A stretch of 48,190 bases of DNA from Deltaproteobacteria bacterium HGW-Deltaproteobacteria-1. Its GTDB lineage: Bacteria; Desulfobacterota; Syntrophia; Syntrophales; Smithellaceae. Shown piece after piece: positions 14,946-40,910 of the stretch; within the stretch, counting starts at the first letter, position 1, and each line of letters begins with the position of its first letter. The notes beneath the pieces were generated by a model. That model had not been told where the DNA came from and ran no database searches. It saw only the letters and a list, made by a program, of their open reading frames with translations. Position numbers and translations under genes: made by a program. Location: positions 1 through 48,190 of the forward strand of contig PHBN01000002.1 of NCBI GenBank assembly GCA_002840635.1. The letters run 5' to 3'.

Positions 14946-14963
14946 CTCATACTCCCTCCTTTC

Positions 14964-17183: not shown

Positions 17184-17833
17184 ATCTTTTCCTCCCCACA
17201 TTTCATTGAATTGAGCAAACAAGTCACTATAGCGGTGTTGTTAATTTCTTTGCGGAGGTCCAGTGACAATATCCCATGTCGGAGCAGTGCGAAAACCTCT
17301 TGCTTCAAAAAACCCCGTGAGCCCATCAAGCCGACGATTTCACCAAAGGGCATGTTTTCTCTGTTCGATAATATGTCGTTTAGGCTAAGCAGGTGGCTGT
17401 CCGAAATCGGAATCATGGAATATTTCTGCAGTAGTTTCACGTTGTCGAGAAGGGGCTGTTCCCTGATCATGCTGTCGGTAACGACCATGAATTCATAACC
17501 TTCGCGGTATATGACCGGAGCGACGCGTTGAAACAATTGACGGCAATCATCACTTTTTGCGGTTTTGTCGTCCTTGACTTCCACAACCTGGACCCGGTTT
17601 CCAACCCTTGTAACCAGGAAGTCCGGGGTGTATCGATGGATTTTACTGTCCCTGTCGTCATGGTACCTTACGCAAACTGATTGTTCTTCAAAAGATATGA
17701 CCTCCGGATCGAATTCCAACAAATATATGTAATCGCGCTCGATTTGGGATTCCCACATCACCATCCTGCCCATTTTTTGGCTGGGGAACTTCCCGATCAC
17801 TTTCCTGCCACCGTTTGTAATTTTTCTAATCAT
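17180..17833 (-). CDS. tnsA: TnsA endonuclease
   Basis: WESQIERDYIYLLEFDPEVISFEEQ...YTPDFLVTR...VQVVEVKDD matches the TnsA N-terminal restriction-endonuclease-like fold with its E/D/ExK residues. Confidence 0.85.
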   Translation of the reverse strand: MIRKITNGGRKVIGKFPSQKMGRMVMWESQIERDYIYLLEFDPEVISFEEQSVCVRYHDDRDSKIHRYTPDFLVTRVGNRVQVVEVKDDKTAKSDDCRQLFQRVAPVIYREGYEFMVVTDSMIREQPLLDNVKLLQKYSMIPISDSHLLSLNDILSNRENMPFGEIVGLMGSRGFLKQEVFALLRHGILSLDLRKEINNTAIVTCLLNSMKCGEEKI

Positions 17834-20435: not shown

Positions 20436-20891
20436 CTATGGGCATTGTTTGAACTTGCCATTCTTGAAGATACCTAGTTCACGTTTCCCATTGAGCTCAC
20501 GTATGATTATACCTTTTCGATTTGGATCGGCATAATATAGAGGAACGTCCTTTATAGGTTTGATTACTACGCCAGGCTTAATTATTTTCCATATTGCCCT
20601 AGCTAGAGCGCCCTGACCTGCCTTAATATTGCGTTTGGTACTTACTTTGTTTGGTGGCTGAATATTAAAGATTATAGAAGAGCCGAAGCGAATCGGCCCG
20701 GGAATCACTTCTCCAGTTTGGCTCATATCCTTGATGATACCCTGAACAATTTTCCGGATACCCTTCAGGGCTGCCTCAGGTGTCTTGTCCAGGCAGCTCA
20801 GGCTTGGAAATTCAACACACGAACCTACGTATGCCAGATCATCCTCAGACCAGGTTAGGAGATAGGTATAACGATCATTCTTCAGCGGCAT
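20436..20891 (-). CDS. HicB-like (UPF0150-type) domain protein with an extra C-terminal domain
   Basis: The preferred start is the ATG at 20891, with GGAGG 7 nt upstream and located after the upstream gene's stop. YTYLLTWSEDDLAYVGSCVEFPSLSCLDKTPEAALKGIRKIVQGIIKDM is a typical HicB-antitoxin N-domain pattern. Confidence 0.6.
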   Translation of the reverse strand: MPLKNDRYTYLLTWSEDDLAYVGSCVEFPSLSCLDKTPEAALKGIRKIVQGIIKDMSQTGEVIPGPIRFGSSIIFNIQPPNKVSTKRNIKAGQGALARAIWKIIKPGVVIKPIKDVPLYYADPNRKGIIIRELNGKRELGIFKNGKFKQCP

Positions 20892-20919
20892 GCTCAACCT
20901 CCAGCGGTATTGTGCGCGC

Positions 20920-21297
20920 TCAGGATATAAGTCCATGTTCAATGCGGCCGAGCTCATTCAGCACCTGGTCAATCCCCTTATCGGAGATCATCAATTCCAT
21001 GTGAGTTTGGGGACCTGGGCCAATAACTTCCGATTGAAGCCATTCTTCGGCGGCCGCGGTACTGCCAAATACTTCTATGCTCCGCTTCTGGACCTTGATT
21101 AGGTTCGCCACATGTTTTTTGTCACGCTTCAACATACGGTTTTCTTCGCGTTGCCCCGGTTTTATTTCCTCTTCGATTTGGCTGATAAGCCTCTGGGCTT
21201 TGCGGATGGTTTCATCGAGAGTCAATTTTGTGGCGGCTTTTAAAAAAAACACGGTGAGGTTTAATAAATCATGATCGACTTTTTCGTTGGCTTTCAT
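20920..21297 (-). CDS. MbcA/ParS/Xre-type antitoxin-domain (DUF2384-like) protein
   Basis: The C-terminus AAAEEWLQSEVIGPGPQTHMELMISDKGIDQVLNELGRIEHGLIS fits the A-x2-WL...P..L...G...V...L.RIE.G pattern of this family. A GGAGGG ribosome-binding site is present. Confidence 0.65.
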   Translation of the reverse strand: MKANEKVDHDLLNLTVFFLKAATKLTLDETIRKAQRLISQIEEEIKPGQREENRMLKRDKKHVANLIKVQKRSIEVFGSTAAAEEWLQSEVIGPGPQTHMELMISDKGIDQVLNELGRIEHGLIS

Positions 21298-23613: not shown

Positions 23614-26600
23614 ATGAGCTTTAATGAAAATACTAGAGTGAAAATTCCTGCCATCCTACATTTGTGTAGATTGGGATACAATTACTTATCGCTTGCTAAT
23701 GCAAAACGAGATGAAACTACAAATATCTTCACTGATTTGTTTTCAGAAAGCATCAAACAAATAAATCCGGATGTTGAAGAAATTGATATTAAACGCTTAT
23801 TAGAAGATATCTCTCTGGCTCTGGATAATGAGGATTTGGGCGAAGCTTTTTACAAAATGCTTACAAACAGCTCAGGCATTAAGCTAATAGATTTTAACGA
23901 TTTCAAGAACAACTCTTTTCATGTTGTAACGGAACTGATCTGCAAAAATAGTGATGATGAATTTCGACCGGACATTACTCTTCTAATAAATGGAATGCCC
24001 CTTGTCTTTATCGAAGTAAAGAAACCCAATAATCACGAAGGAATTTTAGCAGAAAGAGACCGTATCAATATTCGTTTTAAGAATAAGAAGTTCAGAAAAT
24101 TTATAAACATTTCACAAGTACTCGTTTTTTCTAACAACATGGAATATGATCACCAATCAATAGAACCTATTCAAGGCGCATTTTATTCTTCAACTTCATA
24201 TAATGAAGCAAATTTTAATTGCTTCAGAGAAGAAGAACAATTTAATTTACAATACATTCTTAAACCAGAAGGTGATGAAATTGAAAACATTGTTTTAAAA
24301 GACAATAACCTTTCTGCAATTAAACACTCACCAGAGTTTATAACCAATAAAGAACCCGATACTCCGACAAATAGGATTTTAACGTCGCTATTTTCCAAAG
24401 TCCGGCTGTCAATGCTTTTAAAACACTGTATCGCCTATGTACGAGAAACAAATGGTCTGGAAAAACATATAATGCGTTACCCGCAACTATTTGCGACAAA
24501 GGCAATTGAGCAAAAAATTGATACCGGCACTAAAAGAGGCATTATCTGGCACACGCAAGGAAGTGGAAAGACAGCTCTCGCCTACTATAATGTTCATTAT
24601 TTAACAGATTATTTCCAGCAAAAGGGCATTATCCCAAAGTTCTATTTTATTGTTGATCGCATCGACCTGATGCACCAGGCTAAACGAGAGTTTGCCATAA
24701 GAGGTTTGTCGGTACACACTGTTGATTCCAAGGAAGCATTACTTAAGGATTTTAGACTGAAACAGGCAATTCATAACCTTTCCGGCGAACGGGAAATTAC
24801 AGTTGTTAATATCCAGAAATTTAAAGATGATACTGATGTGTTGAAGGTCAATGATTATGACATCAATATTCAGAGGATTTATTTCCTTGATGAAGTCCAC
24901 CGGAGTTACAATCCTACCGGCAGCTTTTTAGCAAATTTATATAATTCCGACAGGAATGCTATTCTTATAGGATTGACGGGTACGCCCTTGATATTGTCCG
25001 ACAGGAAATCGCGAGACACCTTTGGCGATTATATCCATAAATATTATTACAATGCGTCTATTGCCGATGGCTATACTTTGCGACTTATCCGGGAAGGAAT
25101 AGAGACTAATTATAAGATTCAACTTGCCCAGGCATTAAAAGAGGTTGAGGTTCTAAAGGGAGACGTGGATAAACGCATCATATACGCCCACGAGAGATTT
25201 GTCGAACCTATGCTTGATTACATTGTTCAGGACTTTATAAAAAGCAGAATCCGTTTCAATGACTACTCCATTGGTGGGATGGTAGTTTGCGATAGCGCAG
25301 AGCAGGCCAGAAAACTCTTTCAAATATTTATTGCCAAATACAATCCCCAGCAGCAAACAGTAGAAGAAGTATCAACCGAATATCTAAAAGTTGCTGAGCC
25401 ACCAGTTGAATACGGGTTATATCAGAATGATCAAAAAAGAAGATTAACAGCATCGTTGATATTATATGATGTTGGCTCGAAGGATGAACGCAAGGATGAA
25501 GTTGACGACTTTAAAGATGGGAAAATAGATTTGCTATTTGTTTACAACATGCTTCTTACCGGCTTCGATGCAAAAAGATTAAAGAAATTATATATTGGCC
25601 GCATAATCAAAGATCATAATCTGCTGCAAATGCTTACACGTGTCAATCGTCCCTATAAAAAGTTCAGATATGGATTTATAGTTGATTTTGCCGATATCCG
25701 CAAAGAATTCGACGCGACCAATAAAGCATATTTTGAAGAATTACAGGCCGAACTCGGCGATGAAATGAAAAACTATTCCAATCTCTTTAAATCAAAGGAA
25801 GAGATAGAAGAAGAAATCAGAGACATCAAAGAAAAGCTGTTTCATTATAATTTAAATAATGCAGAAATATTCTCTCAACAAATAAGCCTGATTGAAGACC
25901 GGGAGAAGGTTTTAGAAATTAAGAAAGCCTTGGAGAATGCCAGAAACCTATATAATATAATCCGGCTATACGGGTATTTTGAACTATTAGAAAAGGTGGA
26001 TTTCAAAAAGCTGAATCAGCTGCTTAATGAAACGGTGCGCCATCTGGAATTGTTGAACCTGAAAAATACTATTCAAAATAGTGCTGATACTGCCAATCTG
26101 CTGAATGTAGCATTGGAAAATGTAATTTTCATGTTCCGAAAAGTTTCCGAAGAAGAAATGATTATTGCCGACCAACTTAAAGATATGCTGCGTAAAGCAA
26201 GAGAGGCCTTAGGTGGTAATTTTGATCAGAAAGACCCTGTATTTGTTACCTTGTATGATGAGTTGAAAAGGCTTTTTGAAAAAAAGAATCTTGACGAAAT
26301 AACTCAGGAAGAAATGAAGCAGAATATTGGTTCTTTACGGCAGATATATGACAGAGTATCAGAGCTTAACCGCAAGAATAATCTATTGAAGGCAAAGTAC
26401 GAAAATGATGCTAAGTATGCTCGAATACATAAAAGGATTTTAGAAAAAGGAACAATCACAAAAAAAGAGAGTACAATTCACGAAACATTGATGGATATAA
26501 AAAAACAGACTGATGATATAGTGCTGCTCAATACTAAGGTACTGGAAAATGAAAGTTATTTTGCACATAGGCTGATGCCGATAGTGATTGATGGATTTAA

Positions 26601-26700
26601 TAAAGTTCGAGTAGAGCTGGAACCTGATTCAGCACGGTATATCAACACCTGTGTGGCAAAGGAATACATGAACGAATATCAGGGAGCTTCTGCATGGTAA
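23614..26700 (+). CDS. hsdR: type I restriction enzyme R subunit
   Basis: 1028 aa. The N-terminal nuclease region reads FRPDITLLINGMPLVFIEVKKP. The helicase motifs are TQGSGKT (motif I) and the DEVH box. The gene overlaps hsdM by 7 nt. Confidence 0.95.
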   Translation: MSFNENTRVKIPAILHLCRLGYNYLSLANAKRDETTNIFTDLFSESIKQINPDVEEIDIKRLLEDISLALDNEDLGEAFYKMLTNSSGIKLIDFNDFKNNSFHVVTELICKNSDDEFRPDITLLINGMPLVFIEVKKPNNHEGILAERDRINIRFKNKKFRKFINISQVLVFSNNMEYDHQSIEPIQGAFYSSTSYNEANFNCFREEEQFNLQYILKPEGDEIENIVLKDNNLSAIKHSPEFITNKEPDTPTNRILTSLFSKVRLSMLLKHCIAYVRETNGLEKHIMRYPQLFATKAIEQKIDTGTKRGIIWHTQGSGKTALAYYNVHYLTDYFQQKGIIPKFYFIVDRIDLMHQAKREFAIRGLSVHTVDSKEALLKDFRLKQAIHNLSGEREITVVNIQKFKDDTDVLKVNDYDINIQRIYFLDEVHRSYNPTGSFLANLYNSDRNAILIGLTGTPLILSDRKSRDTFGDYIHKYYYNASIADGYTLRLIREGIETNYKIQLAQALKEVEVLKGDVDKRIIYAHERFVEPMLDYIVQDFIKSRIRFNDYSIGGMVVCDSAEQARKLFQIFIAKYNPQQQTVEEVSTEYLKVAEPPVEYGLYQNDQKRRLTASLILYDVGSKDERKDEVDDFKDGKIDLLFVYNMLLTGFDAKRLKKLYIGRIIKDHNLLQMLTRVNRPYKKFRYGFIVDFADIRKEFDATNKAYFEELQAELGDEMKNYSNLFKSKEEIEEEIRDIKEKLFHYNLNNAEIFSQQISLIEDREKVLEIKKALENARNLYNIIRLYGYFELLEKVDFKKLNQLLNETVRHLELLNLKNTIQNSADTANLLNVALENVIFMFRKVSEEEMIIADQLKDMLRKAREALGGNFDQKDPVFVTLYDELKRLFEKKNLDEITQEEMKQNIGSLRQIYDRVSELNRKNNLLKAKYENDAKYARIHKRILEKGTITKKESTIHETLMDIKKQTDDIVLLNTKVLENESYFAHRLMPIVIDGFNKVRVELEPDSARYINTCVAKEYMNEYQGASAW

Positions 26701-28322
26701 CACAAGATTTTACAGTTGACACAAAAGAGCTGATTGATAACCTTAAGGGTGTTTGTGCATCTTACGGTTTGGGGAATGACGGGAATGAATTTAAAATCAT
26801 TACCCAGGTATTTCTCTATAAATTTATGAACGACAAGTTTGGCTATGAAGTGAAAGAATTAGATGCCAAATTAAAAAAATCCACGAATTGGGAACAGAAG
26901 ATTGCAGGCTATTCGGATAAACAATATGAGATGCTACTGTTAAAAATGAGTCCCGATAGCGCAAAACTGAAAAGAGAGCATTTTTTATCCAACCTTTTTA
27001 ACAATCAAAACAAAGAACAATATGCCAAGTTCTTTGATGATACGCTGCGGGATATAGCCATTTTTAATAATGAAATATTTTCAGTTAAGACCGGAACTGG
27101 CGCAAAAATTACTCTGTTTGACGAGTTAAGTAATTACATCACAGACAGCTCAAAGCGTGATGACTTCTGTCGCGCTCTCATTAACCATTTGATAAATTTT
27201 AGTTTTGAAAAAATATTCCATCAGAAATTTGACTTTTTCTCTACAATCTTTGAATACCTGATAAAAGATTATAATAAAGATGGTGGCGGGAAATATGCAG
27301 AATACTACACGCCCCATGCCGTTGCTAAAATCATGGCTTCAATTCTTGTAGATAAGCCGGTGAGTAATGTAACCTGTTACGACCCGGCGGCTGGTTCCGG
27401 GACATTGCTCATGAACCTTGCTCATGCCATCGGCGAAGATCGCTGTACCATTTACTCACAGGATATTTCGCAAAAGTCATCAAGCATGTTACGGTTAAAC
27501 CTGATTTTGAATAACCTCGTGCATTCCATCCCCAATATTATTCAAGGTAATACCCTGCTCACGCCGTATCATAAAACCGGCGACAAGCTGATGAACTTTG
27601 ATTACATTGTTTCTAATCCGCCCTTCAAAATAGATTTCAGCGATTACCGCGACGACTTGGATACAAAACAGAACCACAATCGCTTTTTTGCGGACATTCC
27701 TAAAATACCTAATAAAGATAAAGATAAAATGGCCATCTATTTGCTCTTTATTCAACATATAATGTTTTCACTCTCTGCTAAGGGGAAAGCCGCAATTGTT
27801 GTACCAACCGGATTTATTACAGCTCAAAGTGGGATTGAAAAAAAAATCCGGACAAAACTGGTAGAAGAAAAAATGCTTCGCGGTGTGGTCTCCATGCCGA
27901 GTAATATTTTTGCTACCACCGGCACCAATGTTTCGGTTCTTTTTTTGGATAAGGCCAATACCAAAGGCGATATTGTGTTGATGGATGCCTCTAAACTTGG
28001 CACAACTATTAAAGACGGGAAAAACCAGAAAACATTGCTCTCTCCGAATGAAGAAGACTTAATTGTTAAAACATTCCATGGACACAAAACTGTAGAAGAT
28101 TTTGCCGTCGTGGTTTCATATGAGCAGATTAAAGAGAAAAATTACTCGCTGAGTGCAGGCCAGTATTTTGATGTGAAGATAGAATATAAAGATATTACGC
28201 CGGACGAATTTGAGGCGAAGATGAATGGATATAAGAACAATCTCGATAAAATATTTAAAGAATCAAAAAGGCTTGAGAATGAGGTTAAGAAGCAGTTGGC
28301 GGGGTTGAAGTATGATTTATAA
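26694..28322 (+). CDS. hsdM: type I restriction-modification N6-adenine DNA methyltransferase subunit
   Basis: EYYTPHAVAKIM, DPAAGSGTLLM (AdoMet binding) and the catalytic motif VSNPPFK. Confidence 0.95.
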   Translation: MVTQDFTVDTKELIDNLKGVCASYGLGNDGNEFKIITQVFLYKFMNDKFGYEVKELDAKLKKSTNWEQKIAGYSDKQYEMLLLKMSPDSAKLKREHFLSNLFNNQNKEQYAKFFDDTLRDIAIFNNEIFSVKTGTGAKITLFDELSNYITDSSKRDDFCRALINHLINFSFEKIFHQKFDFFSTIFEYLIKDYNKDGGGKYAEYYTPHAVAKIMASILVDKPVSNVTCYDPAAGSGTLLMNLAHAIGEDRCTIYSQDISQKSSSMLRLNLILNNLVHSIPNIIQGNTLLTPYHKTGDKLMNFDYIVSNPPFKIDFSDYRDDLDTKQNHNRFFADIPKIPNKDKDKMAIYLLFIQHIMFSLSAKGKAAIVVPTGFITAQSGIEKKIRTKLVEEKMLRGVVSMPSNIFATTGTNVSVLFLDKANTKGDIVLMDASKLGTTIKDGKNQKTLLSPNEEDLIVKTFHGHKTVEDFAVVVSYEQIKEKNYSLSAGQYFDVKIEYKDITPDEFEAKMNGYKNNLDKIFKESKRLENEVKKQLAGLKYDL

Positions 28323-29574
28323 TGACTCAAAATATAACGCTGACTGGGAGGAAAAACCTCTTAATCGGTTAGGTGAATTCAGTAGAGGTAAATCAAAACA
28401 TAGACCAAGAAATGATAAAAAATTATTTGTGGATGGAAAGTACCCTTTTATTCAGACTGGGGAAATTAAAGCTGCAAATTTGTTCATTAATAGCCATTCA
28501 GAAATGTACAATGATTTTGGGTTAAAACAAAGTAGATTATGGGATAATAATACGTTATGTATTACAATAGCTGCAAATATCGCGGAAACTGCTTTACTCG
28601 GTTATCCAATGTGTTTTCCAGATAGTGTTGTTGGTTTCAACGCGTATCCAAACGAATCATCTGAACTATTCATGCATTATGTATTTACCTATATAAAAAA
28701 ATCGATTCAAAACTCTGCTTCTGGTAGTATTCAAGATAACATTAATATTGATTATTTAACGGCATTGAATTTTAGGATTCCCAAAAAGAAATATCAGGAT
28801 AAAATTGTCGCCGTTCTATATGCCCTCGATTCCAAAATCGAATTCAATAACCGAATTAATGCCGCGCTGGAAGCAATGGCTAAAACGTTATACGATTTTT
28901 GGTTTGTGCAGTTTGATTTTCCAGATAAGAACGGCATGCCATACAAATCCAGTGGCGGTAAAATGGTATGGCATGCGGAGTTGAAACGGGAGATTCCGGA
29001 GGGGTGGGAAGTTAAAAGTCTCAACGAATTAACAGAAGTAAGCAACGAACAGGTTAATCCTATAGCTATACCCGATAAAGAGTATAAGCATTATAGTATC
29101 CCAGCTTTTGATGCTTGCGGTTCATATAAATCTGAAAAAGGTATTGATATACTTAGTAATAAATTTAAAATTAGAAAAACAGATGTTCTCGTTTCTAAAT
29201 TGAACCCATGGTTTAGTCGGGTAATTTATGCAACCGATGAATCAGATTTGATTTCATCGACTGAATTTGTTGTATGGCGTGAAAAAAATATAGGCAAGAA
29301 AAACTACCTTTTCATGATTGCTCGTGATGCTTCTTTCGTTACCTATTGCACTCAATCTGCCGCTGGCACTTCAAATAGTCATAAGAGAGTTACTCCAAAA
29401 GTCATGATGAAATATCGTGTTGTTTACAATGAACAAGTAGCGGAATCATTCGGTATTATTTTAGGCTCGACTATTAAGATGTATGCAAAGAATCAAATCG
29501 AAACTAATAATCTTTCCGAACTCCGGGATTGGCTTCTCCCCATGCTAATGAATGGCCAGGTTAAAGTTAAATAG
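28312..29574 (+). CDS. hsdS: type I restriction-modification specificity subunit
   Basis: 420 aa with two target-recognition halves separated by a conserved helical spacer (IVAVLYALDSKIEFNNRINAALEAMAKTLYDFWFVQFDFP). A second spacer lies at the C-terminus (LSELRDWLLPMLMNGQV). Confidence 0.9.
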   Translation: MIYNDSKYNADWEEKPLNRLGEFSRGKSKHRPRNDKKLFVDGKYPFIQTGEIKAANLFINSHSEMYNDFGLKQSRLWDNNTLCITIAANIAETALLGYPMCFPDSVVGFNAYPNESSELFMHYVFTYIKKSIQNSASGSIQDNINIDYLTALNFRIPKKKYQDKIVAVLYALDSKIEFNNRINAALEAMAKTLYDFWFVQFDFPDKNGMPYKSSGGKMVWHAELKREIPEGWEVKSLNELTEVSNEQVNPIAIPDKEYKHYSIPAFDACGSYKSEKGIDILSNKFKIRKTDVLVSKLNPWFSRVIYATDESDLISSTEFVVWREKNIGKKNYLFMIARDASFVTYCTQSAAGTSNSHKRVTPKVMMKYRVVYNEQVAESFGIILGSTIKMYAKNQIETNNLSELRDWLLPMLMNGQVKVK

Positions 29575-29865: not shown

Positions 29866-30244
29866 TCCTATCACCTCTCTTTCCCCGGCATAAATTAAAA
29901 TATACCCTTAGGGGAAAGATGGTCTTGGGATTTCGCTTGACGAAAACTTCCTGTCTATGCTACGTCTCAATTAAATCTAAGCTAAAGCCTTATGGGCAAT
30001 TTCAACCGGAACCCCAGTTCTCTGCAAAGACTGGGGTTTTCTTTGTAAAAAATCATACCACTACATATAGTGCTTGTCAATAGCATGGATACAATATATT
30101 GTAAGCTTGTATAATATATTGATAATATTCAACATTTATATTATTCCTAAGTATATAATTTATTTGTATATATAATATTTAATTATATTCTTGACATATT
30201 ATATAAAATTATTTAACATGTTTTCCAAACAGAAAGGAGGCTCT

Positions 30245-31372
30245 ATGACAAGAGAGGAACTTGCTTTACGTCTTAAAGCCGCCCGTGAAACAACAGGTTT
30301 GTCATTAGGTGATGCAGCGACCCGTCTTGGATTTCCAAGTTATCAAACACTGAGTAGTATCGAAAATGGGCAAAGAGAGGTAAAGGTTTCTGAACTGGCC
30401 CGTTTTGCCCGGATTTATTTTTACAATCTGAGTGACTTCCTGGCGGAACAAGCATCGCAGTCGGAATGCCCTATTCTGTGGCGTAATCCACCTGAAGCCG
30501 AAGAGCAGAAGAAGCAAGCACAGCGAGAGATATTCTCCTTGTGTGAGCAATATCATGTGCTGGAGAAGTTGCTCGGCATCAAGTCGGAAAAGGGATTTAT
30601 GGAAGTAACGCGCGAATCCATAAATTCCAATCAAGCCATTAATCGTCTGGCAAAGGAAACGAGGAATCTTCTGGGATTAGGTCAAAGACCGGCATGTTCG
30701 CTCCAGAAGGTTTTGGAACAGGATTATGGCGTAAAGATTCTCTACTATCCTCTTGCTTATGGATCGGCCGCGTCCATGGTTCATCCTGACATGGGTAAAG
30801 CGGTTGTGATCAATGCCAACGAAGTGTCGTGGCGGCAGAATTACGATCTGGCGCACGAACTTTTCCATCTGATTCTGTGGAAAGTTTTTTCTCTGGATGA
30901 AATGAACGATACGCTCTTCTTTTCGGATGTGGAAAAAAAGGCTGATCGTTTTGCCTCCATGCTGCTTTTGCCGGAAGATGAGGTCCGGCGTGAACTGGAG
31001 CAGGTCATGGCAAACAATAAGCAGGTCAATTTTTCCGATATTGTGGACATTGCCATGGACTTCGGTGTTTCCGCCAAGGCCCTGGTATATCGTCTTGCCT
31101 CTGTCAATTTGATTAAATGGGAAATGGCCGATACGCTGGCACATGATGAGGAACTGGCGGAAATCAGCAGGCAGAAAAGAAAACAGGAACAGCAAACAAA
31201 GCAGTCCGAACGTTTTAATGCACTGGCCGTGCGCTGCCTGCGAAAAGGATTCATTTCACGGGGGAAATTCGCCGAACTGATCAACATTGACCGCAGCGAT
31301 ATAGATGATCATATCGAAAACATGGGCATGATGGAATCGGAGGGGAAAGCGGTTGAAGTTATGGCTTCTTGA
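30245..31372 (+). CDS. XRE-type HTH fused to an ImmA/IrrE-family zinc metallopeptidase domain
   Basis: The preferred start is at 30245 (AAAGGAGG upstream). The HTH reads LALRLKAARETTGLSLGDAATRLGF. The HExxH motif lies in NYDLAHELFHLILW. Confidence 0.85.
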   Translation: MTREELALRLKAARETTGLSLGDAATRLGFPSYQTLSSIENGQREVKVSELARFARIYFYNLSDFLAEQASQSECPILWRNPPEAEEQKKQAQREIFSLCEQYHVLEKLLGIKSEKGFMEVTRESINSNQAINRLAKETRNLLGLGQRPACSLQKVLEQDYGVKILYYPLAYGSAASMVHPDMGKAVVINANEVSWRQNYDLAHELFHLILWKVFSLDEMNDTLFFSDVEKKADRFASMLLLPEDEVRRELEQVMANNKQVNFSDIVDIAMDFGVSAKALVYRLASVNLIKWEMADTLAHDEELAEISRQKRKQEQQTKQSERFNALAVRCLRKGFISRGKFAELINIDRSDIDDHIENMGMMESEGKAVEVMAS

Positions 31373-31865
31373 CGCCGATATCCTGATCGATTTCTTATCT
31401 CGTGATCTGCTTGATAAACTGGTGGAGAAGCACGAGATCTATGCGGCAAGTTCTGTGATCGATGAAGTCAGGTACTTCAAACGCAATATTGAAAAGATCG
31501 ATGCCAGGTTCCGCGAAAGGTACGTCCAAACAGGTCTGATCAAAGAGGTGAGCGCCACTGCCGAAGAGGCTTCATGTCTTTTGAACCATTTCACTAACGA
31601 TTTCAAATTTACCATACATGCAGGCGAAATCGAGTCCCTTGCCGTATTGATCAGGCAGACGGAATTAATATTCTGTACCTGCGATGCGGCCGCTATCCGA
31701 ACTCTTCCGCTTCTTGATCTTACTGAGCGAGGAATCTCCGCCGAAAAACTCCTCAGACAATCGGGATTGTATAAACCGGGCCTTAAAGAAAGACATACCG
31801 AAGAGTATTTCAAGAGCAATATTTCCATCGGACGTGAGTACAAAATTTATAATCTTAAAAGCTAA
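31353..31865 (+). CDS. putative PIN-like nuclease domain protein
   Basis: It overlaps the upstream gene by 20 nt and has a non-ATG (TTG) start. Acidic motifs are LLDADILID, HAGEIESLAV and IFCTCDAAAI, spaced as in PIN domains. Evidence is motif-level only. Confidence 0.55.
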   Translation: MKLWLLDADILIDFLSRDLLDKLVEKHEIYAASSVIDEVRYFKRNIEKIDARFRERYVQTGLIKEVSATAEEASCLLNHFTNDFKFTIHAGEIESLAVLIRQTELIFCTCDAAAIRTLPLLDLTERGISAEKLLRQSGLYKPGLKERHTEEYFKSNISIGREYKIYNLKS

Positions 31866-32105: not shown

Positions 32106-32308
32106 TTAGAATTACTTTTTCCGTTGGACTCCAAAACTTCAAATACAAGTCTTCACATACATTAATCACTTGATTATATTGACTTCGGGATGAAAAGGTG
32201 CAAAATCTATTAGCACAATTATTGGGTATGCCCTAGTGGCTGAACTGTGCATCGGTGTCGTGATAAAACTGCGAGATAAGAAAGTAACTTAAGGTGTAAC
32301 ATTCTGAC

Positions 32309-33298
32309 ATGATAGAAAAGATCGAACCCATCCCCAAATATATTCCTGAATCGCTCCGTCTCGCAGCGATTCAGAGAAAGCTCATTCCGTTTATTGGCGC
32401 AGGGGTCTCTCAACTCGGAGGCTGCCCAAACTGGTGTGAATTTGCCGATGCCTCTCTTAATTTTTTTGTTGAAAAAGGGAAGTTGAATCATGCCCAACTT
32501 GCCCAAATTGCGCCTCTTTCTTCTCGGGTGAAGTTGTCTGTGGCTCTGGAGCTTGAAAAGCAGCACAATCTTCGCATCGACTTCAAGAAATTGCTGACAC
32601 CGTCCGGGGCCAAGAAAAAAATCGGGAATGAGGTTTATGCGAACCTCTCAAGACTGGCAACTACTTTTGTTACGACAAATTATGATGATTGGTTGGACCA
32701 AATTCCACCAGAACCTTTGCGGGCTGATGATCTGGCACCTTCTCAGTCACTGCCACTTGGCACAACACGCCATTGCTTTTACAAACGCAACGATATCTCT
32801 GTTGAGAACCTGGACGTCCCGAATGCAGTGTTCCACATACATGGTTCTATCCGTGATCGAGATAGCATGGTGATAAGGACTGTCGACTACCTCGATTGTT
32901 ATTCAAGCCATAGAATTGATGGAAAAGAGAATCACGAAAATGCGTTCCTGACATTTCTACAAACGCTTTTCCAGTTGAAGAATGTCCTATTCATTGGTTA
33001 TGGCCTTAATGAGATGGAAGTCCTTGAGTACATTGTTCAGAAGGGGATCCGGAAGCCAAAAACTGATGAGGAACCAAGACACTACGTTCTGCAGGGTTTT
33101 TTCACGCACGACTTGGAACTCGCACGCAGTTTGGAGAGCTATTTTCATGAGTTCGGGATCGGGTTACTTCCATTTTCACGTGACGACTGTAATTGGGATC
33201 AACTGATTGCTGTCATTGACTACCTTGCCCGGGAGATTCCCCCTGGTCCACCATTGGCTTTGCCAAAACGCCTCGAAATGGAGGAGTTACTATCGTGA
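32309..33298 (+). CDS. SIR2-like (SIR2_2-type) NAD-utilising domain protein
   Basis: The motifs are LIPFIGAGVSQLGGCPNW, FVTTNYDDWLD (N124), VFHIHGSI (H178) and VLFIGYGLNEMEV, in the order and spacing typical of defence-associated SIR2 domains. Confidence 0.85.
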   Translation: MIEKIEPIPKYIPESLRLAAIQRKLIPFIGAGVSQLGGCPNWCEFADASLNFFVEKGKLNHAQLAQIAPLSSRVKLSVALELEKQHNLRIDFKKLLTPSGAKKKIGNEVYANLSRLATTFVTTNYDDWLDQIPPEPLRADDLAPSQSLPLGTTRHCFYKRNDISVENLDVPNAVFHIHGSIRDRDSMVIRTVDYLDCYSSHRIDGKENHENAFLTFLQTLFQLKNVLFIGYGLNEMEVLEYIVQKGIRKPKTDEEPRHYVLQGFFTHDLELARSLESYFHEFGIGLLPFSRDDCNWDQLIAVIDYLAREIPPGPPLALPKRLEMEELLS

Positions 33299-36135
33299 GT
33301 CTGGTATTAATGACAAAGCAAACGTTGTTTATTAAGCGGATGACCGAAAATCAAGAACAAGCGAAATGGGGTTTTGAGATTCTACTCAAGCAGCAAAATT
33401 TCGCTGAATATTTTGGCCACTTAAAAGATGCTGGCCTTTTTGCTCCAGAACATAATTTGGATCCGATACAATCCGAGGACAGCAGGTTTGTGCGAATCCC
33501 CTATTGGAGTGCGCTTGACTATTTGGTGGCGGTTGCGAAGCAGGCTGGGGCCAACAAAGACATCCCGTTAGCACGAAAGGTTATGGACGTCATTCGCACC
33601 GTAAGTGGCTTTTGCGGTTCCGATGGTAGAAGTCGTGACAATTATCATACCTATATGAAATTTGCCGAAATTCTCGGTCTTCTGCCAACGGCTTCAATTG
33701 AAAAAGAAGACCTCAGTCTTATCCCGATCTGGCTGAGCAGCAAATACGACCGAGGAATGGTTGGTCATTCCCTTGATATAGGAGCACTAAGGCAGTTGCT
33801 AGCGAGCGAAGCGCCTGACGACTGGGAAAAAGCCGTCATAATACTTGACTATTGCACGGCTATTCTTTGGGCTGAGGAAAAAGGCGTTAGTAAAGGGCGG
33901 AAGAAGCCGGTAGCAGTTATTGAGGGCTACTGGTTTAAGGAACTGATCAAACACCATGTAGATATCTTCGGCGCTAAGACAGGCAGAGAAGCGGCTCAGA
34001 TATTCCGTAATAGGCTTTCGGTAATTTTTGGTGAAGAATTCGGCGATCTTCCGACCTACTTGAGCCGACCAGCTGTTGAGGATCATCCGCAAAACCATTC
34101 GTGGGATGAAGTTGTCAACGGAATTGTCGAAGGACTTCGAGATGTCTTATTGTCCTGGATTGAAAACAAGTCAGAGAGTGCTTCTGCATTTGTTGAAGAG
34201 ATCCTTGAAGATAAAGACGAGATGGTTCGTCGGATCGCCATTTATATTCTTGCTCAGCGATGGTCTGTGCTGAAAAGTCTCTATAAGAATATTATTAGCA
34301 CCCACCTCTTTGATTCGAGAAATATCCACGAAACATACCACTTACTCAAAGATCGCTTTTCCGAATTCAGCGATTCGGAAAAGGCCTTAACACTTGAGGC
34401 GATTCGCCAGTTGTCACCACCAGATCATGAAGATCCGGAGCGGCTTCTGAAGCACACGCAGCGAAACTGGCTGTCAGCAATCGCGGGAAAGGGATATGAG
34501 CCAGCTGACAGCTGGTTTAGGGAACTCGATACTGACCCGAACATAGGCAGACTGTCAGAGCATCCTGATTTTCACTCCTATATGGAGACATGGTCTGGTC
34601 CAGGCCCTTCACCCTATTCAACCCAAGAACTGCTTGCGTTTGCAGAGGACGGCAGCTTAATAAAAAGATTAACCGAGTTTCAGCAATCCAGTGATTGGCA
34701 AGGCCCGTCAACCCCATCAATTAAAGCTCTCGTTGATACACTTGAGGAAATTGTAGGAAGCAATCCCCGAAAATTTCTTCAGCTCCTGCCGGCATTCCTT
34801 GATGCCAAAAGGCCATATCAGTATGGTATCATCAATGGTTTCAAAAGTATCTGGGATAAACCTAAGGATAAACAGCAGGATCTTGACTGGGACGTCGTAT
34901 GGGGCCGATTAATTGATTTTTTTGTACAGTTGCTGGATAAACCTGATTTCTGGACAGAAGAAGTAGTCAATGATCATGATTTAACCCCCACTCGTGACTG
35001 GATTCCACCAATAATTGCTGAATTTCTGCATGCTGGTACGAGAGATGACAGTAAAGCCTATCCACCAAAATTTCTTACGAGTACGTTTGCGTTAATAAAA
35101 ATTTTATTAGAGAAATTGGAGCCCGTTGATGATGCGAAAGAGGATGCCATGTTTCAGGCAATCAACTCATCCAAGGGTAAGGCGATTGAAGCACTTTTTA
35201 GCCATACACTCAGGGTGTGCCGCATCAGCGACAAAGAGCGGGGAGATCATACGGAAGCTTGGAAAGATATCAAGCCAACCTTTGATGTAGAACTGGCAAA
35301 ATGCGAGAATACCAATTACGAATTCTCCACTCTGGCGGCGGCTTATCTTACAAATATAGATTACATTAGCCACGACTGGCTGTTGCCAAGTATTGATAAG
35401 ATTTTCCCTAAAGACTTCCCGGAAAATTTTGCATGTGCCATAGACGGATTGGCTTATGCATCAGCATCTCGATCAATCTATCAGCTGTTACTTGAACATG
35501 GAGTGCTGGACAGAGCTTTGCGTCTAAATCGGACTCGAAAGCAAGCTCACAAAAAAATCATTGAACGGATCGCGCTTGCTTATCTCTTGGGCGATGAAAC
35601 ACTGACTTCGCCGAGGTTATCTTATCTGTTCGAAGGGGACCAGATTGAGGATCTTCAAGATGCCATCGGGTTTTTTTCAAATGCAAGAATGCAGGAGTTG
35701 ACGAAAGAACAAATCGAACGGATCATCTGTTTTTGGGAAAAATGCGTGACTTGGGCGGAAGCTTTGACCGAACCGCCGAAATTGCTTCTTTCGAGATTAA
35801 GCCTTTTGATTTGTTACATATCTGTACTTACAGATAGAGAAATCAGACTTTTGATGGCGGTAGCACCGTATATAGATGTTGAATATCGTGCCGACACGTT
35901 TATCGAAGAACTCGATCGCTTGCTTGAGAAAGATCCTGCAACGGTTAGCCTTGTGTTAGGAAAGGCTCTCGAAACATATCAGCCGGACTTTGACTATGAA
36001 GATCGACTGAAGAATCTTCTGAAAAAATTGGCTCAAAGAGGGAGACGCGACGATGTTCTTCGTTACATTGATCGTGTAAGAAGACTTCCTGGAGTTGACG
36101 AGTTATTCAAACAATTGACCGGCGTGTCGATATAA
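33295..36135 (+). CDS. 946-aa protein of unknown function, apparently all-helical repeat-like
   Basis: The GTG start overlaps the SIR2 gene stop (GTGA at 33295-33298), which implies translational coupling. I see no catalytic or NTP-binding motif. The sequence is rich in amphipathic helix-like segments. Confidence 0.75.
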   Translation: MSLVLMTKQTLFIKRMTENQEQAKWGFEILLKQQNFAEYFGHLKDAGLFAPEHNLDPIQSEDSRFVRIPYWSALDYLVAVAKQAGANKDIPLARKVMDVIRTVSGFCGSDGRSRDNYHTYMKFAEILGLLPTASIEKEDLSLIPIWLSSKYDRGMVGHSLDIGALRQLLASEAPDDWEKAVIILDYCTAILWAEEKGVSKGRKKPVAVIEGYWFKELIKHHVDIFGAKTGREAAQIFRNRLSVIFGEEFGDLPTYLSRPAVEDHPQNHSWDEVVNGIVEGLRDVLLSWIENKSESASAFVEEILEDKDEMVRRIAIYILAQRWSVLKSLYKNIISTHLFDSRNIHETYHLLKDRFSEFSDSEKALTLEAIRQLSPPDHEDPERLLKHTQRNWLSAIAGKGYEPADSWFRELDTDPNIGRLSEHPDFHSYMETWSGPGPSPYSTQELLAFAEDGSLIKRLTEFQQSSDWQGPSTPSIKALVDTLEEIVGSNPRKFLQLLPAFLDAKRPYQYGIINGFKSIWDKPKDKQQDLDWDVVWGRLIDFFVQLLDKPDFWTEEVVNDHDLTPTRDWIPPIIAEFLHAGTRDDSKAYPPKFLTSTFALIKILLEKLEPVDDAKEDAMFQAINSSKGKAIEALFSHTLRVCRISDKERGDHTEAWKDIKPTFDVELAKCENTNYEFSTLAAAYLTNIDYISHDWLLPSIDKIFPKDFPENFACAIDGLAYASASRSIYQLLLEHGVLDRALRLNRTRKQAHKKIIERIALAYLLGDETLTSPRLSYLFEGDQIEDLQDAIGFFSNARMQELTKEQIERIICFWEKCVTWAEALTEPPKLLLSRLSLLICYISVLTDREIRLLMAVAPYIDVEYRADTFIEELDRLLEKDPATVSLVLGKALETYQPDFDYEDRLKNLLKKLAQRGRRDDVLRYIDRVRRLPGVDELFKQLTGVSI

Positions 36136-36179: not shown

Positions 36180-39100
36180 ATGGAACCACAAAATATGGGA
36201 ATAGATTGTTTACATTCAATTCTTGTTGGTCTCAAGCCGACAGGACCGACCGGATTTGAAGGATTAGTTCGAGAACTATTGGAATGTTGGACAGGACAAA
36301 GATTTCGTTTGGCACGCTCAGGAAGCCAATCAGGCAAAGACGCAACTTCAGATTCTTCTTTCGGTACTGTGATTGCCGCTGAGATGAAACGGTATGAGCA
36401 ACAATCTACTCTCAGCTTGCGCCAGCTTCTGGGTGGATTTTCTGAAGCCATACAAACCTTTCCCGATCTTGATCTTTGGGTTTTAGCAGCAACAAAGGAA
36501 ATTGGTGACAAAGAAGCCGAGGGGCTTAAAAAGCAAGCAGAACTTGCAGGTATTGAGAATCTAATCCTGGATTCGAGGGCTGATGGCAGTGGTTATCTTG
36601 AAACGTTCTGTGCAAGATATCCAGATGTTATTAAGGATTATTTCCGCAGGAACATTCCGGGCAGCGATATTGAAGACTTGGACTCAAGAATCAGATGTAT
36701 CCAGAATCATGCAAATTACGAAAAATTTGTTAGACAACTGGATGATATACTGAATGCCGCGGTTTTCGGCTTCAACGGTACACGTAATAGCGCATTTCAG
36801 TGGTTGAATAGCCATATTGATACTCGAACAGAATCAATGGCCGCATTTCTTCAAGACATTGGATTGCGTGACACAAATCGCCAAACGCCTATTATCCGTA
36901 CTCGCCTGAATATCCAATTCGATTCCTGGTGGGAAAACAGAAATGCGGATTCGGCGCATGCTGTCCTTCTTGGGGAAGAGGGTACTGGAAAAACCTGGGC
37001 TGTTATGGCTTGGCTGGCAAACAAGTTCGACGACGAAGCCAGTCCTATTCTCCTGCCCATTACGTCGGCTCAATTATCGGAGACCACAGACCTTTACACA
37101 CTTATCAGTGAGACGTTGATAAAACGATGCGGGAAAACGGATACTTTCTGGAAGAAGCGTCTGGACGGATGGATGAGTCATCCGAGAACCAATGGGCCAT
37201 TATTTCTTCTTTATCTCGATGGCTTAAATGAGAAACCCAACTTTCTCTGGCGCAATTTAATTGCACAAGCTAATTCCCGCGATTGGTATGGACGCATAAC
37301 CATATTCATGACCAGCCGCAAGGAATTTTATAAGACAAAGGTGGCTTCTAGGGCTTCAGGCGTTAGAGAAATCGAAACGACTGGCTACGATAACACTGAA
37401 CTTAACCAGGAATTGGATCGTGCCGGTATATCAAGACCGACCGTAATCCCAGAAGATCTGCGATCCTTAATTCGGAAACCACGATATTGCGATTTGGCAC
37501 TGCAATATTTTAAGAATCTTTTGGTAAGCGGTGACCTTACAGTTGAACGCCTACTTTATCAAGATTATAAAGATAGAGTGGAACGTAAGCTAAATCATCC
37601 CGTTATGGACGATGATTTCAATCAGATACTATGTGATCTGGCAAAGAAATACATGTCTGGAGCGCGTGTTTTTGGCAAAGCAGATCTTGTGACGATTCTT
37701 CCAGGATCGGATGAAGGCGATACCATTCTACAGGAAATTATTGATGGCGGTCTCTTGGTAAGGACGAATCAGTTATCGGCACCTTATCGCGTGGAACCCC
37801 GGAGGCTTGTCTATGGATTGGGAATGCTTCTTGCCGATCATGTAGCTAATGAACCATGCGTATCAATTGACGAATATACCAATGCAGCACAAAAATGGTT
37901 GGAACCGCAATCGGATATGGAACTGAAGGTTTCTGTAGCTGGCGCAGCAGCATTTATAAGCATCGTGGATAAGAATTTTCCGGTGAACGCCAGGCGGGCA
38001 CTGCTAAGGCTTTGGATCGGATCGCGCAACATGACGGACATACAGGAGAGGGCTGTGACTGCGTATCTGCCTGATTGTGCGTCTGATATCGTGGAGGTAG
38101 CCAATGTTTTTTGGAGCACGGGGCAAGACAATGGCATTGCGCAGGAGAGGTTAGCGGCGGCCTTCCTAAAACACCGTGATGACTCAAAGGTCAAGCCCAT
38201 ACTGGCCGCCGCCTGCAAACGTTGGATGAGTTATGTCAATATTAATGGACACCCATTGGAGCGGGGGGCAAACGATGCAAATATAGATGAACTTAGGCAG
38301 GCCTTATTCAATCGTTTAGGTAAGAAAGTTGCCAGCGGAGATAATACGACTTTCTATGGTCGGGATTTTTTAATTACCGAAGATGACAATCTGTTACGTA
38401 TGGCCAGGTTCGCAATGTTCCTCATATCTGCGGGAGACAGGCTACCCTTCATAGAGTCTTTCTTTCAATGGGCCATTTCTAGACGTTTAATGGGTCGATA
38501 TTCGGAATTTGATGAGGCCGCATGGGTTCTACGTCTTTCAGATGAAGACCTCTGGCCCGCTTTTGGGACTAATTTAATGCAAATGGCCATGTCTGAGGAT
38601 GACACGCTTAAGAGGGCAGCTAGCCTTCTTTCAACATGCATAGGGAGCCGAGCTTCAAATGAACTAGTTGAAAGCCACCTTCAAGGCCTTTCTTCAGCGT
38701 CAGCACTGCAAATAGAATACAAAAAAGACCCTTACGCCAGTATTTTTGCCTTGCCTTCCCGCGACGACTGCGAACCATGCATGGCCAGAGATGATCTTTC
38801 AATATGGCACATTGTACAGAAAATCACTAATTACATCAATGATCCGGAGGTTGCAGCTCCGGAAGGATTCATCGGCCGATTGCGTGAAACAGTGTCATTG
38901 CTCCCAGTCACGGGTTATTGTGCTACGTTCGGCCATACCATTGAAGATCATCAAATCGAGACCTATCTCCCGGTTCTCGCGCGTTTTGCCTATCAAAACT
39001 TAGCAGAGTTGATGCGGAAGACCGTACATACGCTGGATCAAAGAAATGAAGAGGGCGTCCGCCAACTTCTGATCAATATTCCCGAATTCGGAATTGTCCT

Positions 39101-40910
39101 ACAGGACCCAGAGCTTGCTATTCTCGACAAGTTTCTGGCGATATACCACCGAAAGGTATGTATATGGCCGAATCATCGTGACGGTGTACCTCTTGATAGC
39201 GAAATATTTGCCGAGTCGCGTGGGGCACTTGCCCGCATCATGCATATGACGGCCGATGAGTCCGCTGTGTTTATTCTGAATCGGCCAGAGAAGGCTTTGG
39301 ATTTGGAATCTCTTGGCCGCTGGTTTCAGCCTTTACCCGCAGAAACAATCAGAGATTTTTTATCGCGATTTTTAACAGAATCGTCAACTGTTACTCAGCA
39401 TAGAATCCTGTGGCTGCTATATAATGCAAAGCCTGTTCTTTCCGATACCCATAGGTATATATTGATCCAATGGATGGAAAGCAGGTGTAACGTCCTTGAA
39501 TATTGTGCTTTTCAATTTGCGTGGTTATCCGGTGACCAAAACCTCGTCGATCATGTCCTCCAGCAAGAGGGCTTCTTGCACCCTGAAACGAGCAGAATTG
39601 ACACTTGGGTTGCAAATATTTATAAAAGATATGGTCGTGAAGTACCTTTTCAAAAACTAGCTCAACGTCTTCCGCTGGAATGGGTCGGCACTATTATCTG
39701 TGGTGATTCATGTCGATCATGTGATGTTCAACTTTTTGCCAATCTCCTAGATGAAGTCTGGGAACTTATTGCTCAGGATGAGAAATTAGATGATATGGAA
39801 TTTCTATCGCCACAGGTGGAAGAAGATCAAGAAGCCGGTGCTACTTTCTTCCACTATAGAGAGCCGACATCTGACCGTTCGATTCGCTATGTCTCGTTAT
39901 TCACGTCTTGGCGTAGTGGAAGATCGGAAGAAAATAATGTCAACCCCAATTTTTCTTTACAGGATTCTCCCGAAGACTTTGCCACAAGACAACATACCTT
40001 CAATAAGCAAATCGAGGTTTTGGTGCAGGATGAAAAAACGCGCTGGCGGTATTGTCAATTAGACACAAACGTATTGACTCGTGTTTGCCGAGACCATGTC
40101 GAAATGGTTAATAAGTGGATTGATGCAGTTTTAGAAGGCAATTCTAAAAAAGATCTCCTCCTTATTTGTAGTGGTTTTTACCAATCCTTAAGTGCTGCTC
40201 TTTTCACCATAGGACACCCCCAGGGCGTTCTTCTTTGGAGAAAAATCCGCGAGCATCCACATCAAGTCAACTTTAATAATAAGCATGCGGGAGCTGATTG
40301 GATGACTTGTCTACCTTTTGCCGCATTGCCTTCCGCAGACGCAGACAATACCGCAGTTGAACTACTGGATAACTGTCACAGTGATATAGGTCTTTTGGAA
40401 CTAGCCACTGTCGCCTGTGCGTATAAACGACAAACATGGATTCTGGAAAAGACTGAGGATCTTATTGGCAAGCCACAGTTATGGCTCAGGGCAAAAGGTC
40501 TCATGTTGCTTTCCCTAGCTGATATGGATTGTGAAATTGACAGACTCATACAATCTTCTGATATTGGAGGAACATGGGTAGAAAAACTGCTCCCACAAAT
40601 CGAATATTTGCACGATAGAAACCGATGGGCACGCCACTGGTATAACCGTTTTCTGACAGTTGCCGAAAATGATGAAGCCTTCGCTTGTTTCCTGCTTGTC
40701 CTAAAGTGCATAGATAGGCGATTCCACCTTTGGATGGATGAACTTGATGAGGAAGCACAAAAGTCTGGTGCCATGGATGAAAAAAGAAAGAAATTCCGGA
40801 TCACCAATAATGATCAAATTGAGAGGGCAATTAAAGAAAATGAAAAAGAGTTAGACAATCATTTTTTGACGTTGAAATTTGAGAAAGGACAAGTGCTACC
40901 ATTTTTATGA
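36180..40910 (+). CDS. 1576-aa protein: N-terminal Mrr-like PD-(D/E)xK nuclease, then STAND/NACHT-like P-loop NTPase, then a ~1200-aa C-terminal region
   Basis: FEGLVRELLECW...SGKDAT...VIAAEMKRY (D54, E68-x-K70) resembles the Mrr/restriction-endonuclease core. Walker A is LLGEEGTGKTW (nt 36972-36995). Walker B is LFLLYLDGLNE (around nt 37218-37232), which resembles the hhhhDGLDE motif of NACHT/STAND proteins. Confidence 0.8.
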   Translation: MEPQNMGIDCLHSILVGLKPTGPTGFEGLVRELLECWTGQRFRLARSGSQSGKDATSDSSFGTVIAAEMKRYEQQSTLSLRQLLGGFSEAIQTFPDLDLWVLAATKEIGDKEAEGLKKQAELAGIENLILDSRADGSGYLETFCARYPDVIKDYFRRNIPGSDIEDLDSRIRCIQNHANYEKFVRQLDDILNAAVFGFNGTRNSAFQWLNSHIDTRTESMAAFLQDIGLRDTNRQTPIIRTRLNIQFDSWWENRNADSAHAVLLGEEGTGKTWAVMAWLANKFDDEASPILLPITSAQLSETTDLYTLISETLIKRCGKTDTFWKKRLDGWMSHPRTNGPLFLLYLDGLNEKPNFLWRNLIAQANSRDWYGRITIFMTSRKEFYKTKVASRASGVREIETTGYDNTELNQELDRAGISRPTVIPEDLRSLIRKPRYCDLALQYFKNLLVSGDLTVERLLYQDYKDRVERKLNHPVMDDDFNQILCDLAKKYMSGARVFGKADLVTILPGSDEGDTILQEIIDGGLLVRTNQLSAPYRVEPRRLVYGLGMLLADHVANEPCVSIDEYTNAAQKWLEPQSDMELKVSVAGAAAFISIVDKNFPVNARRALLRLWIGSRNMTDIQERAVTAYLPDCASDIVEVANVFWSTGQDNGIAQERLAAAFLKHRDDSKVKPILAAACKRWMSYVNINGHPLERGANDANIDELRQALFNRLGKKVASGDNTTFYGRDFLITEDDNLLRMARFAMFLISAGDRLPFIESFFQWAISRRLMGRYSEFDEAAWVLRLSDEDLWPAFGTNLMQMAMSEDDTLKRAASLLSTCIGSRASNELVESHLQGLSSASALQIEYKKDPYASIFALPSRDDCEPCMARDDLSIWHIVQKITNYINDPEVAAPEGFIGRLRETVSLLPVTGYCATFGHTIEDHQIETYLPVLARFAYQNLAELMRKTVHTLDQRNEEGVRQLLINIPEFGIVLQDPELAILDKFLAIYHRKVCIWPNHRDGVPLDSEIFAESRGALARIMHMTADESAVFILNRPEKALDLESLGRWFQPLPAETIRDFLSRFLTESSTVTQHRILWLLYNAKPVLSDTHRYILIQWMESRCNVLEYCAFQFAWLSGDQNLVDHVLQQEGFLHPETSRIDTWVANIYKRYGREVPFQKLAQRLPLEWVGTIICGDSCRSCDVQLFANLLDEVWELIAQDEKLDDMEFLSPQVEEDQEAGATFFHYREPTSDRSIRYVSLFTSWRSGRSEENNVNPNFSLQDSPEDFATRQHTFNKQIEVLVQDEKTRWRYCQLDTNVLTRVCRDHVEMVNKWIDAVLEGNSKKDLLLICSGFYQSLSAALFTIGHPQGVLLWRKIREHPHQVNFNNKHAGADWMTCLPFAALPSADADNTAVELLDNCHSDIGLLELATVACAYKRQTWILEKTEDLIGKPQLWLRAKGLMLLSLADMDCEIDRLIQSSDIGGTWVEKLLPQIEYLHDRNRWARHWYNRFLTVAENDEAFACFLLVLKCIDRRFHLWMDELDEEAQKSGAMDEKRKKFRITNNDQIERAIKENEKELDNHFLTLKFEKGQVLPFL

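Follow-up and report, generated by a model that had tools for sequence, protein, structure and literature searches.

We analysed a 48,190-nucleotide (nt) stretch of contig PHBN01000002.1 from Deltaproteobacteria bacterium HGW-Deltaproteobacteria-1 (assembly GCA_002840635.1), and by "the window" we mean this whole stretch. It carries two overlapping genes, one for a SIR2 protein of 329 amino acids (aa) and one for a helical protein of 946 aa. We conclude that this pair is very probably a functional two-gene Dsr1 anti-phage system, consisting of a separate SIR2 NAD hydrolase (NADase) effector and a translationally coupled alpha-solenoid sensor. Dsr1 is reportedly the defence-associated sirtuin 1 of Gao et al. 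2020. Its two modules and their order are those of the pair, with a SIR2 NADase-type domain at the N-terminus and an alpha-helical repeat sensor of ~900 aa behind it, but they share one chain, whereas the pair consists of two polypeptides made from overlapping genes. The genes and their junction are as follows.

32309-33298, + strand: SIR2 effector gene, ATG start, 329 aa, SIR2_2-type (defence NADase-type) sirtuin
33295-36135, + strand: sensor gene, GTG start, 946 aa, all-alpha solenoid, homologue of the Dsr1 C-terminal sensor
33280-33298, + strand: coupling junction with GGAGG, the sensor GTG and the SIR2 TGA, read directly from the sequence

At the junction (ATGGAGGAGTTACTATCGTGAGT, as read from the window), the two genes overlap by 4 nt, with the sensor GTG at 33295-33297 running into the SIR2 stop codon TGA at 33296-33298. 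The GGAGG at 33280-33284 lies within the codons of the SIR2 tail (…EMEELLS), 10 nt 5' of the sensor GTG. In place of the single polypeptide of Dsr1 there are thus two open reading frames (ORFs) that differ in frame and share 4 nt. The first-pass annotation had described a 329-aa SIR2 ORF whose TGA overlaps the GTG of a 946-aa ORF, and the geometry is exactly that. It is the product of neither chance nor a sequencing frameshift, because the same geometry was found in all 78 non-redundant related loci.

Next, we compared the pair with Dsr1 as represented by the PADLOC models PDLC04166, PDLC04167 and PDLC02183 and the NCBIfam model NF041818. On PDLC04166 (1227 positions), the SIR2 protein covered positions 4-283 (E 1.2e-48) and the sensor positions 313-1200 (E 3.3e-107). 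One Dsr1 profile is tiled in order by SIR2 and then sensor, with the break at about position 300, and the Dsr1-type helical sensor (Dsr1 residues ~310-1220) is found in the 946-aa protein. Three relatives, P0223 (1250 aa), P0261 (1227 aa) and P0266 (1271 aa), were found by HMMER to be fusions with an N-terminal SIR2_2 domain, and they bridge the single-chain and split forms. When the two proteins of the pair were concatenated, residues 12-1244 aligned with residues 6-1224 of P0223 in a single BLASTP segment at 31% identity. BLASTP E values against the fused relatives ranged from 1e-110 to 1e-136, and P0261 itself matched PDLC04166 end to end with 767 bits. In three other fused relatives (P0221, P0237 and P0262), a TIR domain replaces SIR2 (HMMER). 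Neither protein of the pair gave a PADLOC Dsr2 match. The first-pass annotation had suggested a DSR-like protein, DSR1 or DSR2, split into two chains. This suggestion stands for DSR1, on the grounds of the collinear PDLC04166 match, the BLASTP alignment to a fused relative and the conserved split. It fails for DSR2, which has no PADLOC match, is absent from the sensor's Foldseek top 50 and has only the SIR2 fold in common with the pair.

The SIR2 protein belongs to Pfam SIR2_2 (E 6.6e-18), and by Pfam, motifs and fold it has the SIR2_2-type domain of Dsr1 with intact NAD-binding and catalytic residues. Its motifs lie at the following positions.

32396-32410, + strand: SIR2 motif GAGVS, aa 30-34
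32672-32686, + strand: SIR2 motif TTNYD (N124, D126)
32834-32848, + strand: SIR2 motif HIHGS (H178)

All three are invariant across 36 SIR2 homologues, and the homologues are also ~330 aa long. An AlphaFold2 (AF2) model of the protein (pLDDT 83, pTM 0.83) was of low confidence in the last ~20 residues. By Foldseek the model matched the SIR2 domains of ThsA, KomC, DSR2 and Avs5 (E 4e-11 to 1e-8, TMq 0.5-0.62), and at the sequence level a SIR2 profile matched KomC and DSR2 in the PDB. PADLOC matches to ThsA and LmuA were confined to the SIR2 domain.

The 946-aa sensor, which the first-pass annotation had called motif-less, indeed has no Pfam match. Its AF2 model, built from a 31-sequence alignment, is an all-alpha solenoid of ~50 helices (pLDDT 86.6, pTM 0.54). 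A Foldseek search of this model against the PDB returned generic HEAT/ARM solenoids only (importin-beta, CAND1, SF3b) at TM 0.2-0.3, with DSR2 outside the top 50, and PDB sequence searches with the single sequence and two profiles gave nothing relevant and no DSR2. PDB matches of the sensor to NANOG and TRPV3 (E~0.1) were discarded as noise. Homologues of the sensor are numerous, with 1767 representatives at E<1e-3 (HMMER). More than 120 clusters at 49-92% identity are nearly all 925-951 aa long, the shortest being 900 aa. An alignment of 66 diverse sensors, TIR-fused ones included, revealed three nearly invariant motifs.

34066-34095, + strand: sensor motif RPAxExHxQN, aa 258-267
34327-34332, + strand: sensor motif HE, aa 345-346
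34561-34581, + strand: sensor motif HPDFxxY, aa 423-429

RPAxExHxQN and HPDFxxY lie in or adjoin low-confidence segments of the AF2 model (250-256, 268-270 and 426-435).

We then asked how far the split extends among relatives. The survey comprised 89 fetched loci and the window, and 78 non-redundant places had enough upstream DNA. In each of the 78, a SIR2 gene lies directly upstream of the sensor gene, in a different frame and overlapping it, and this holds down to 28% sensor identity. The overlap was 4 nt in 37 loci, 8 nt in 39, 11 nt in one and 1 nt in one. Sensor genes start with ATG in 67 loci, GTG in nine and TTG in two, and most loci have an ATGGAGG-like motif 9-10 nt 5' of the start. 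The two overlap classes have different frame offsets; therefore evolution has reshaped the junction without giving up the overlap. Individual checks of the gene context of nine sensor homologues gave SIR2 upstream in every case, down to 27% sensor identity. A SIR2_2 gene is immediately upstream of the sensor in a Nitrospira metagenome-assembled genome (MAG; 51% sensor identity), a Desulfovibrionales MAG (75%), two deltaproteobacterial MAGs and representatives at 27-31% identity. A contig scan with a single protein query found two loci only, where an alignment query would reach further. Architectures were counted among the 150 best sensor representatives at 50% identity, 119 of which are at least 900 aa long. 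Of these near-full-length representatives, 112 are stand-alone sensors of 912-964 aa and seven are fused, one of the seven being clipped by a contig end. Fused versions also occur on plasmids of the Bacillus cereus group. Measured against relatives at 71-90% sensor identity, dN/dS was ~0.10 for SIR2 and ~0.18 for the sensor, ratios that place both genes under purifying selection. The split form is old, widespread and unannotated. It also exists in a cultured organism.

NZ_CP009266.1 248126-251867 (locus L092), Vibrio coralliilyticus OCN014 plasmid pOCN014: cultured split pair, WP_040122581.1 + WP_040122582.1, 8-nt overlap

The annotation of this plasmid pair reads "SIR2 family protein" for WP_040122581.1 and "hypothetical protein" for WP_040122582.1, the names that PGAP gives to the genes of the pair. 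A SLATT-domain gene and a Phd/YefM antitoxin gene are found near it.

How the pair may work can be proposed from these features together with published work on its relatives. The overlapping stop and start codons and the internal GGAGG would lead to coupled, near-equimolar synthesis of the two proteins. SIR2 and sensor would then assemble into a non-covalent complex equivalent to single-chain Dsr1, in which the SIR2 C-terminal tail and the sensor N-terminus could stand in for the linker. By analogy with E. coli Dsr1 and Avs7, the sensor would bind a phage structural protein, probably the major capsid protein, and this binding would activate NAD+ hydrolysis by SIR2 and deprive the phage of NAD+. 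According to Garb et al. (preprint 10.1101/2021.12.14.472415), DSR1 consists of one protein with a SIR2 domain, which depletes NAD+ when the cell is infected. The Dsr1 and Avs7 sensors are homologous, with a bent, bilobed TPR architecture (PMC13581612), and the phage major capsid protein triggers both SeAvs7 and EcDsr1 (PMC12803255, PMC13581612).

Several observations weigh against such a two-gene Dsr1 system. Against the NCBIfam Dsr1 equivalog NF041818, whose cut-off is 1400 bits, the sensor scored 23.1 bits and the SIR2 protein had no match. The fused relatives also fall far below this cut-off (41-79 bits); consequently, the whole subfamily lies outside the equivalog, distant from E. coli-type Dsr1. 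Given this distance from the characterised protein, the trigger of the pair may be something other than the major capsid protein. Among the sensor's Foldseek matches in the PDB there was no Dsr1 or Avs7 entry. Invariant polar motifs such as ExHxQN, HE and HPDF are unusual for a pure repeat scaffold. The binding of SIR2 to the sensor is a step that we infer, and a terminator scan found no terminator-like site between the sensor gene and the NACHT gene that follows it.

Adjacent frames and a 4-nt overlap could in principle be produced by a 1-nt indel, and the pair might then be one fused Dsr1 gene broken by a sequencing or assembly error or by a recent pseudogenising frameshift. Given the comparative data, which already refute a frameshift artefact, we assign next to no probability to this account. 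The 78 loci come from independent assemblies and are all split at the same place, with two overlap classes and proper start codons. Moreover, the split spans sensor identities from 92% to 27-28%, and dN/dS is low for both genes. A re-reading of the junction had been advised by the first-pass annotation, and on the strength of the 78 split loci and the low dN/dS a sequencing artefact is ruled out. The same annotation had raised the question of fused homologues; they exist, but none was found at 49% sensor identity or above, which also speaks against a recently broken gene. A programmed ribosomal frameshift near the SIR2 stop codon, joining the two ORFs into one Dsr1-like polypeptide, is very improbable. 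In its favour, the sensor frame, which is in the -1 frame relative to SIR2, is open for 25 codons upstream of its GTG. Against it, the two frame offsets are near equal in number (38 versus 40 loci), and one frameshift mechanism cannot serve both. No X-XXY-YYZ slippery heptamer was seen in the last ~24 nt before the stop codon in the window, as inspected by eye and not by a systematic scan. By contrast, most loci keep a start codon with a GGAGG-like motif 9-10 nt 5' of it, which is what independent, coupled initiation would lead one to expect.

Other alternatives accept two separate proteins and differ in how they would act. One of them involves the gene downstream.

36180-40910, + strand: NACHT protein, 1576 aa, Walker A GEEGTGKTW, Walker B-like LLYLDGLNE

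The ATG of this gene is 44 nt 3' of the sensor stop codon on the same strand, and this short gap, lacking a terminator-like site, would suit a three-component system in which the NACHT NTPase supplies the true sensing or oligomerisation module. We regard such a system as quite improbable. A NACHT homologue was present in none of the 89 related loci (tblastn), in agreement with the individually checked gene contexts; the protein belongs to its own conserved single-protein family of ~1570 aa, and no similarity between NACHT protein and sensor was detected. Sequestration and release is a further alternative, in which the sensor keeps SIR2 inactive until the binding of a phage protein frees it to form active oligomers or filaments. 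ThsA, KomC and Avs5, which are structurally nearest to the SIR2 protein, were solved as helical or filament assemblies according to their PDB entry titles. The low confidence of the last ~20 SIR2 residues is what would be expected of a docking tail, and physical release is possible in a split architecture and impossible in a fused chain. However, fused SIR2-sensor relatives are nested among split ones, suggesting that covalent linkage is compatible with the mechanism. We therefore consider release unlikely, albeit worth keeping in mind beside activation within a stable SIR2-sensor complex.

The pair can also be set against other defence systems. Avs7 is a STAND NTPase with a Dsr1-like TPR sensor (PMC13581612). 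The window sensor is of the Dsr1 type, and its link to Avs7 runs through the published Dsr1-Avs7 homology; unlike Avs7, the pair has no STAND NTPase module between effector and sensor. The possibility that the NACHT protein shares the sensor, as in Avs7, was examined separately and rejected (hhalign probability 0.4%). DSR2 resembles the pair in its SIR2 NADase fold (Foldseek E 3e-9, TMq 0.52-0.57) and in its general logic, which pairs SIR2 with a large helical region sensing a phage structural protein. In contrast to the pair it is a single chain, and no sequence similarity was detected between its sensor region and the window sensor. Neither PADLOC, PDB sequence and profile searches nor the Foldseek top 50 revealed DSR2-type middle and C-terminal (tail tube protein-binding) domains in the pair, and the SIR2 fold is common to DSR2, ThsA, KomC and Avs5 alike. 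The TIR-sensor fusions possess the same sensor (28-31% identity, PDLC04166 positions 302-1224), but carry a TIR domain as effector on the same chain, where the pair has a separate SIR2 protein. SPARSA (short prokaryotic Argonaute (pAgo) plus SIR2-APAZ) and SIR2-HerA are two-gene operons in which a partner controls the SIR2 NADase in trans (Garb et al. preprint 10.1101/2021.12.14.472415). They share with the pair the layout of a two-gene defence operon with a SIR2 NADase and a partner protein. The partner in the window is, however, neither an Argonaute nor a HerA ATPase, and Pfam detected no nucleotide-binding or nuclease domain in the sensor. No partner of the Thoeris, SIR2-HerA or SPARSA type was found nearby, the neighbours of SIR2 being an HTH-M78 (HTH, helix-turn-helix) protein, a PIN-like ORF, the sensor and the NACHT protein.

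To see how the two genes evolved relative to each other, we compared SIR2 and sensor distance matrices for 71 pairs. The Mantel correlation was 0.83, a value reached by none of 999 permutations, and the two genes are thus usually inherited as a unit. Some loci depart from this pattern. The sensors of loci L017 and L024 are 70% identical and their SIR2 proteins 48%, and the fused P0223 (locus L090) and the split locus L006 have sensors 59% identical with SIR2 parts at 37%. As sensors 59-70% identical are paired with SIR2 modules only 37-48% identical, the comparison indicates that SIR2 effector modules are sometimes exchanged between lineages at the junction. The same discordance between sensor and SIR2 was seen for L017, L018 and L019 against L022, L024 and L028. 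When the sensors were placed in a neighbour-joining tree, the fused forms, with SIR2 or TIR, appeared at three or four places among stand-alone ones, most of them in one clade. Fusion or fission has thus apparently happened repeatedly, and within the 150 representatives nearest to the query, which were the ones covered, the change may have run in either direction. A bolder proposal is that the stand-alone sensor with a separate SIR2 is the main, possibly ancestral, state, that single-chain Dsr1 and TIR-sensor proteins are secondary fusions, and that the split releases free SIR2 for self-assembly on capture of a phage protein. We hold this combined proposal to be rather doubtful, although it deserves a hearing. 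If it were true, SIR2 release would be an activation route closed to fused proteins, and effector swapping would be easy, as hinted by the loci with discordant identities (59-70% versus 37-48%).

Among defence systems, both split and fused variants are frequent. We found no paper describing a two-gene Dsr1, and a remark in a methods section was the sole mention of the split form that we met. Dsr1 counts as a single-gene system, yet stand-alone sensors dominate this subfamily, and each one with an examined context follows a separate SIR2 gene. A specialist may not be greatly surprised by the split itself; its extent, its age and its invisibility in annotation are worth recording. Where detection rules and curated models presuppose one chain for Dsr1, they may overlook the pair or describe it wrongly. 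In addition, a natural split offers a separable sensor and effector for studying the transfer of recognition to a SIR2 NADase, activation in trans and recombination between effectors and sensors, and the Vibrio coralliilyticus OCN014 plasmid pOCN014 is a cultured source of a split pair for such experiments.

A consensus scan found one candidate promoter in the 443-nt gap 5' of the SIR2 gene.

32152-32180, + strand: candidate promoter TTCACA-17-TATATT, 10/12 matches, weak evidence

The promoter and terminator scan as a whole gave nothing above shuffled expectation, with 10 promoter-like sites observed against 7.3±2.9 in shuffled sequence.

The window places the pair among other defence genes, namely a type I restriction-modification operon, an HTH-M78/PIN-like pair and the NACHT protein. 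This setting is what speaks here for a role in phage defence by NAD+ depletion upon infection. The region is regarded as a defence island because of the type I restriction-modification operon together with an antitoxin pair.

20436-20957, - strand: 173-aa partner of the Xre/MbcA/ParS-type antitoxin
20920-21297, - strand: Xre/MbcA/ParS-type antitoxin
23614-29574, + strand: type I restriction-modification operon, complete with overlapping genes (hsdR 1028 aa, hsdM 542 aa, hsdS 420 aa)
30191-31865, + strand: HTH-M78 protein (PADLOC RmrA-like, NCBIfam spr1629-type repressor/antitoxin) and PIN-like partner

The PIN-like partner, a 170-aa ORF without a family match, has a PIN-like stretch (LLDADILIDFL) at its N-terminus, and it overlaps the gene for the HTH and M78 peptidase protein by 20 nt. 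Lying just upstream of the SIR2 operon, these two genes may be a toxin-antitoxin or regulator pair. The 1576-aa ORF downstream has no confident Pfam, PADLOC, NCBIfam or PDB match of its own. It falls in a conserved family of ~1500-1600-aa proteins, several members of which match Pfam NACHT (PF05729), and it is probably an uncharacterised single-protein STAND/NACHT defence gene. A phage-borne origin of the sensor pair was considered and rejected, since neither a viral contig scan nor a tblastn search of phage GenBank entries found relatives.

A Tn7-like transposition module (12016-17833, - strand) occupies another part of the window.

12016-13944, - strand: TniQ
13941-14945, - strand: TniB/TnsC ATPase
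14964-17222, - strand: TnsB (rve + Mu-transposase C)
17180-17833, - strand: TnsA-like endonuclease
9873-10607, + strand: DUF6994 protein (Pfam E 2.6e-87), on the tniQ-distal side of the Tn7-like module

Judged by gene order, the defence island (20-41 kb) seems to fall outside the tnsA-proximal end of this module, and the DUF6994 gene may be transposon cargo.

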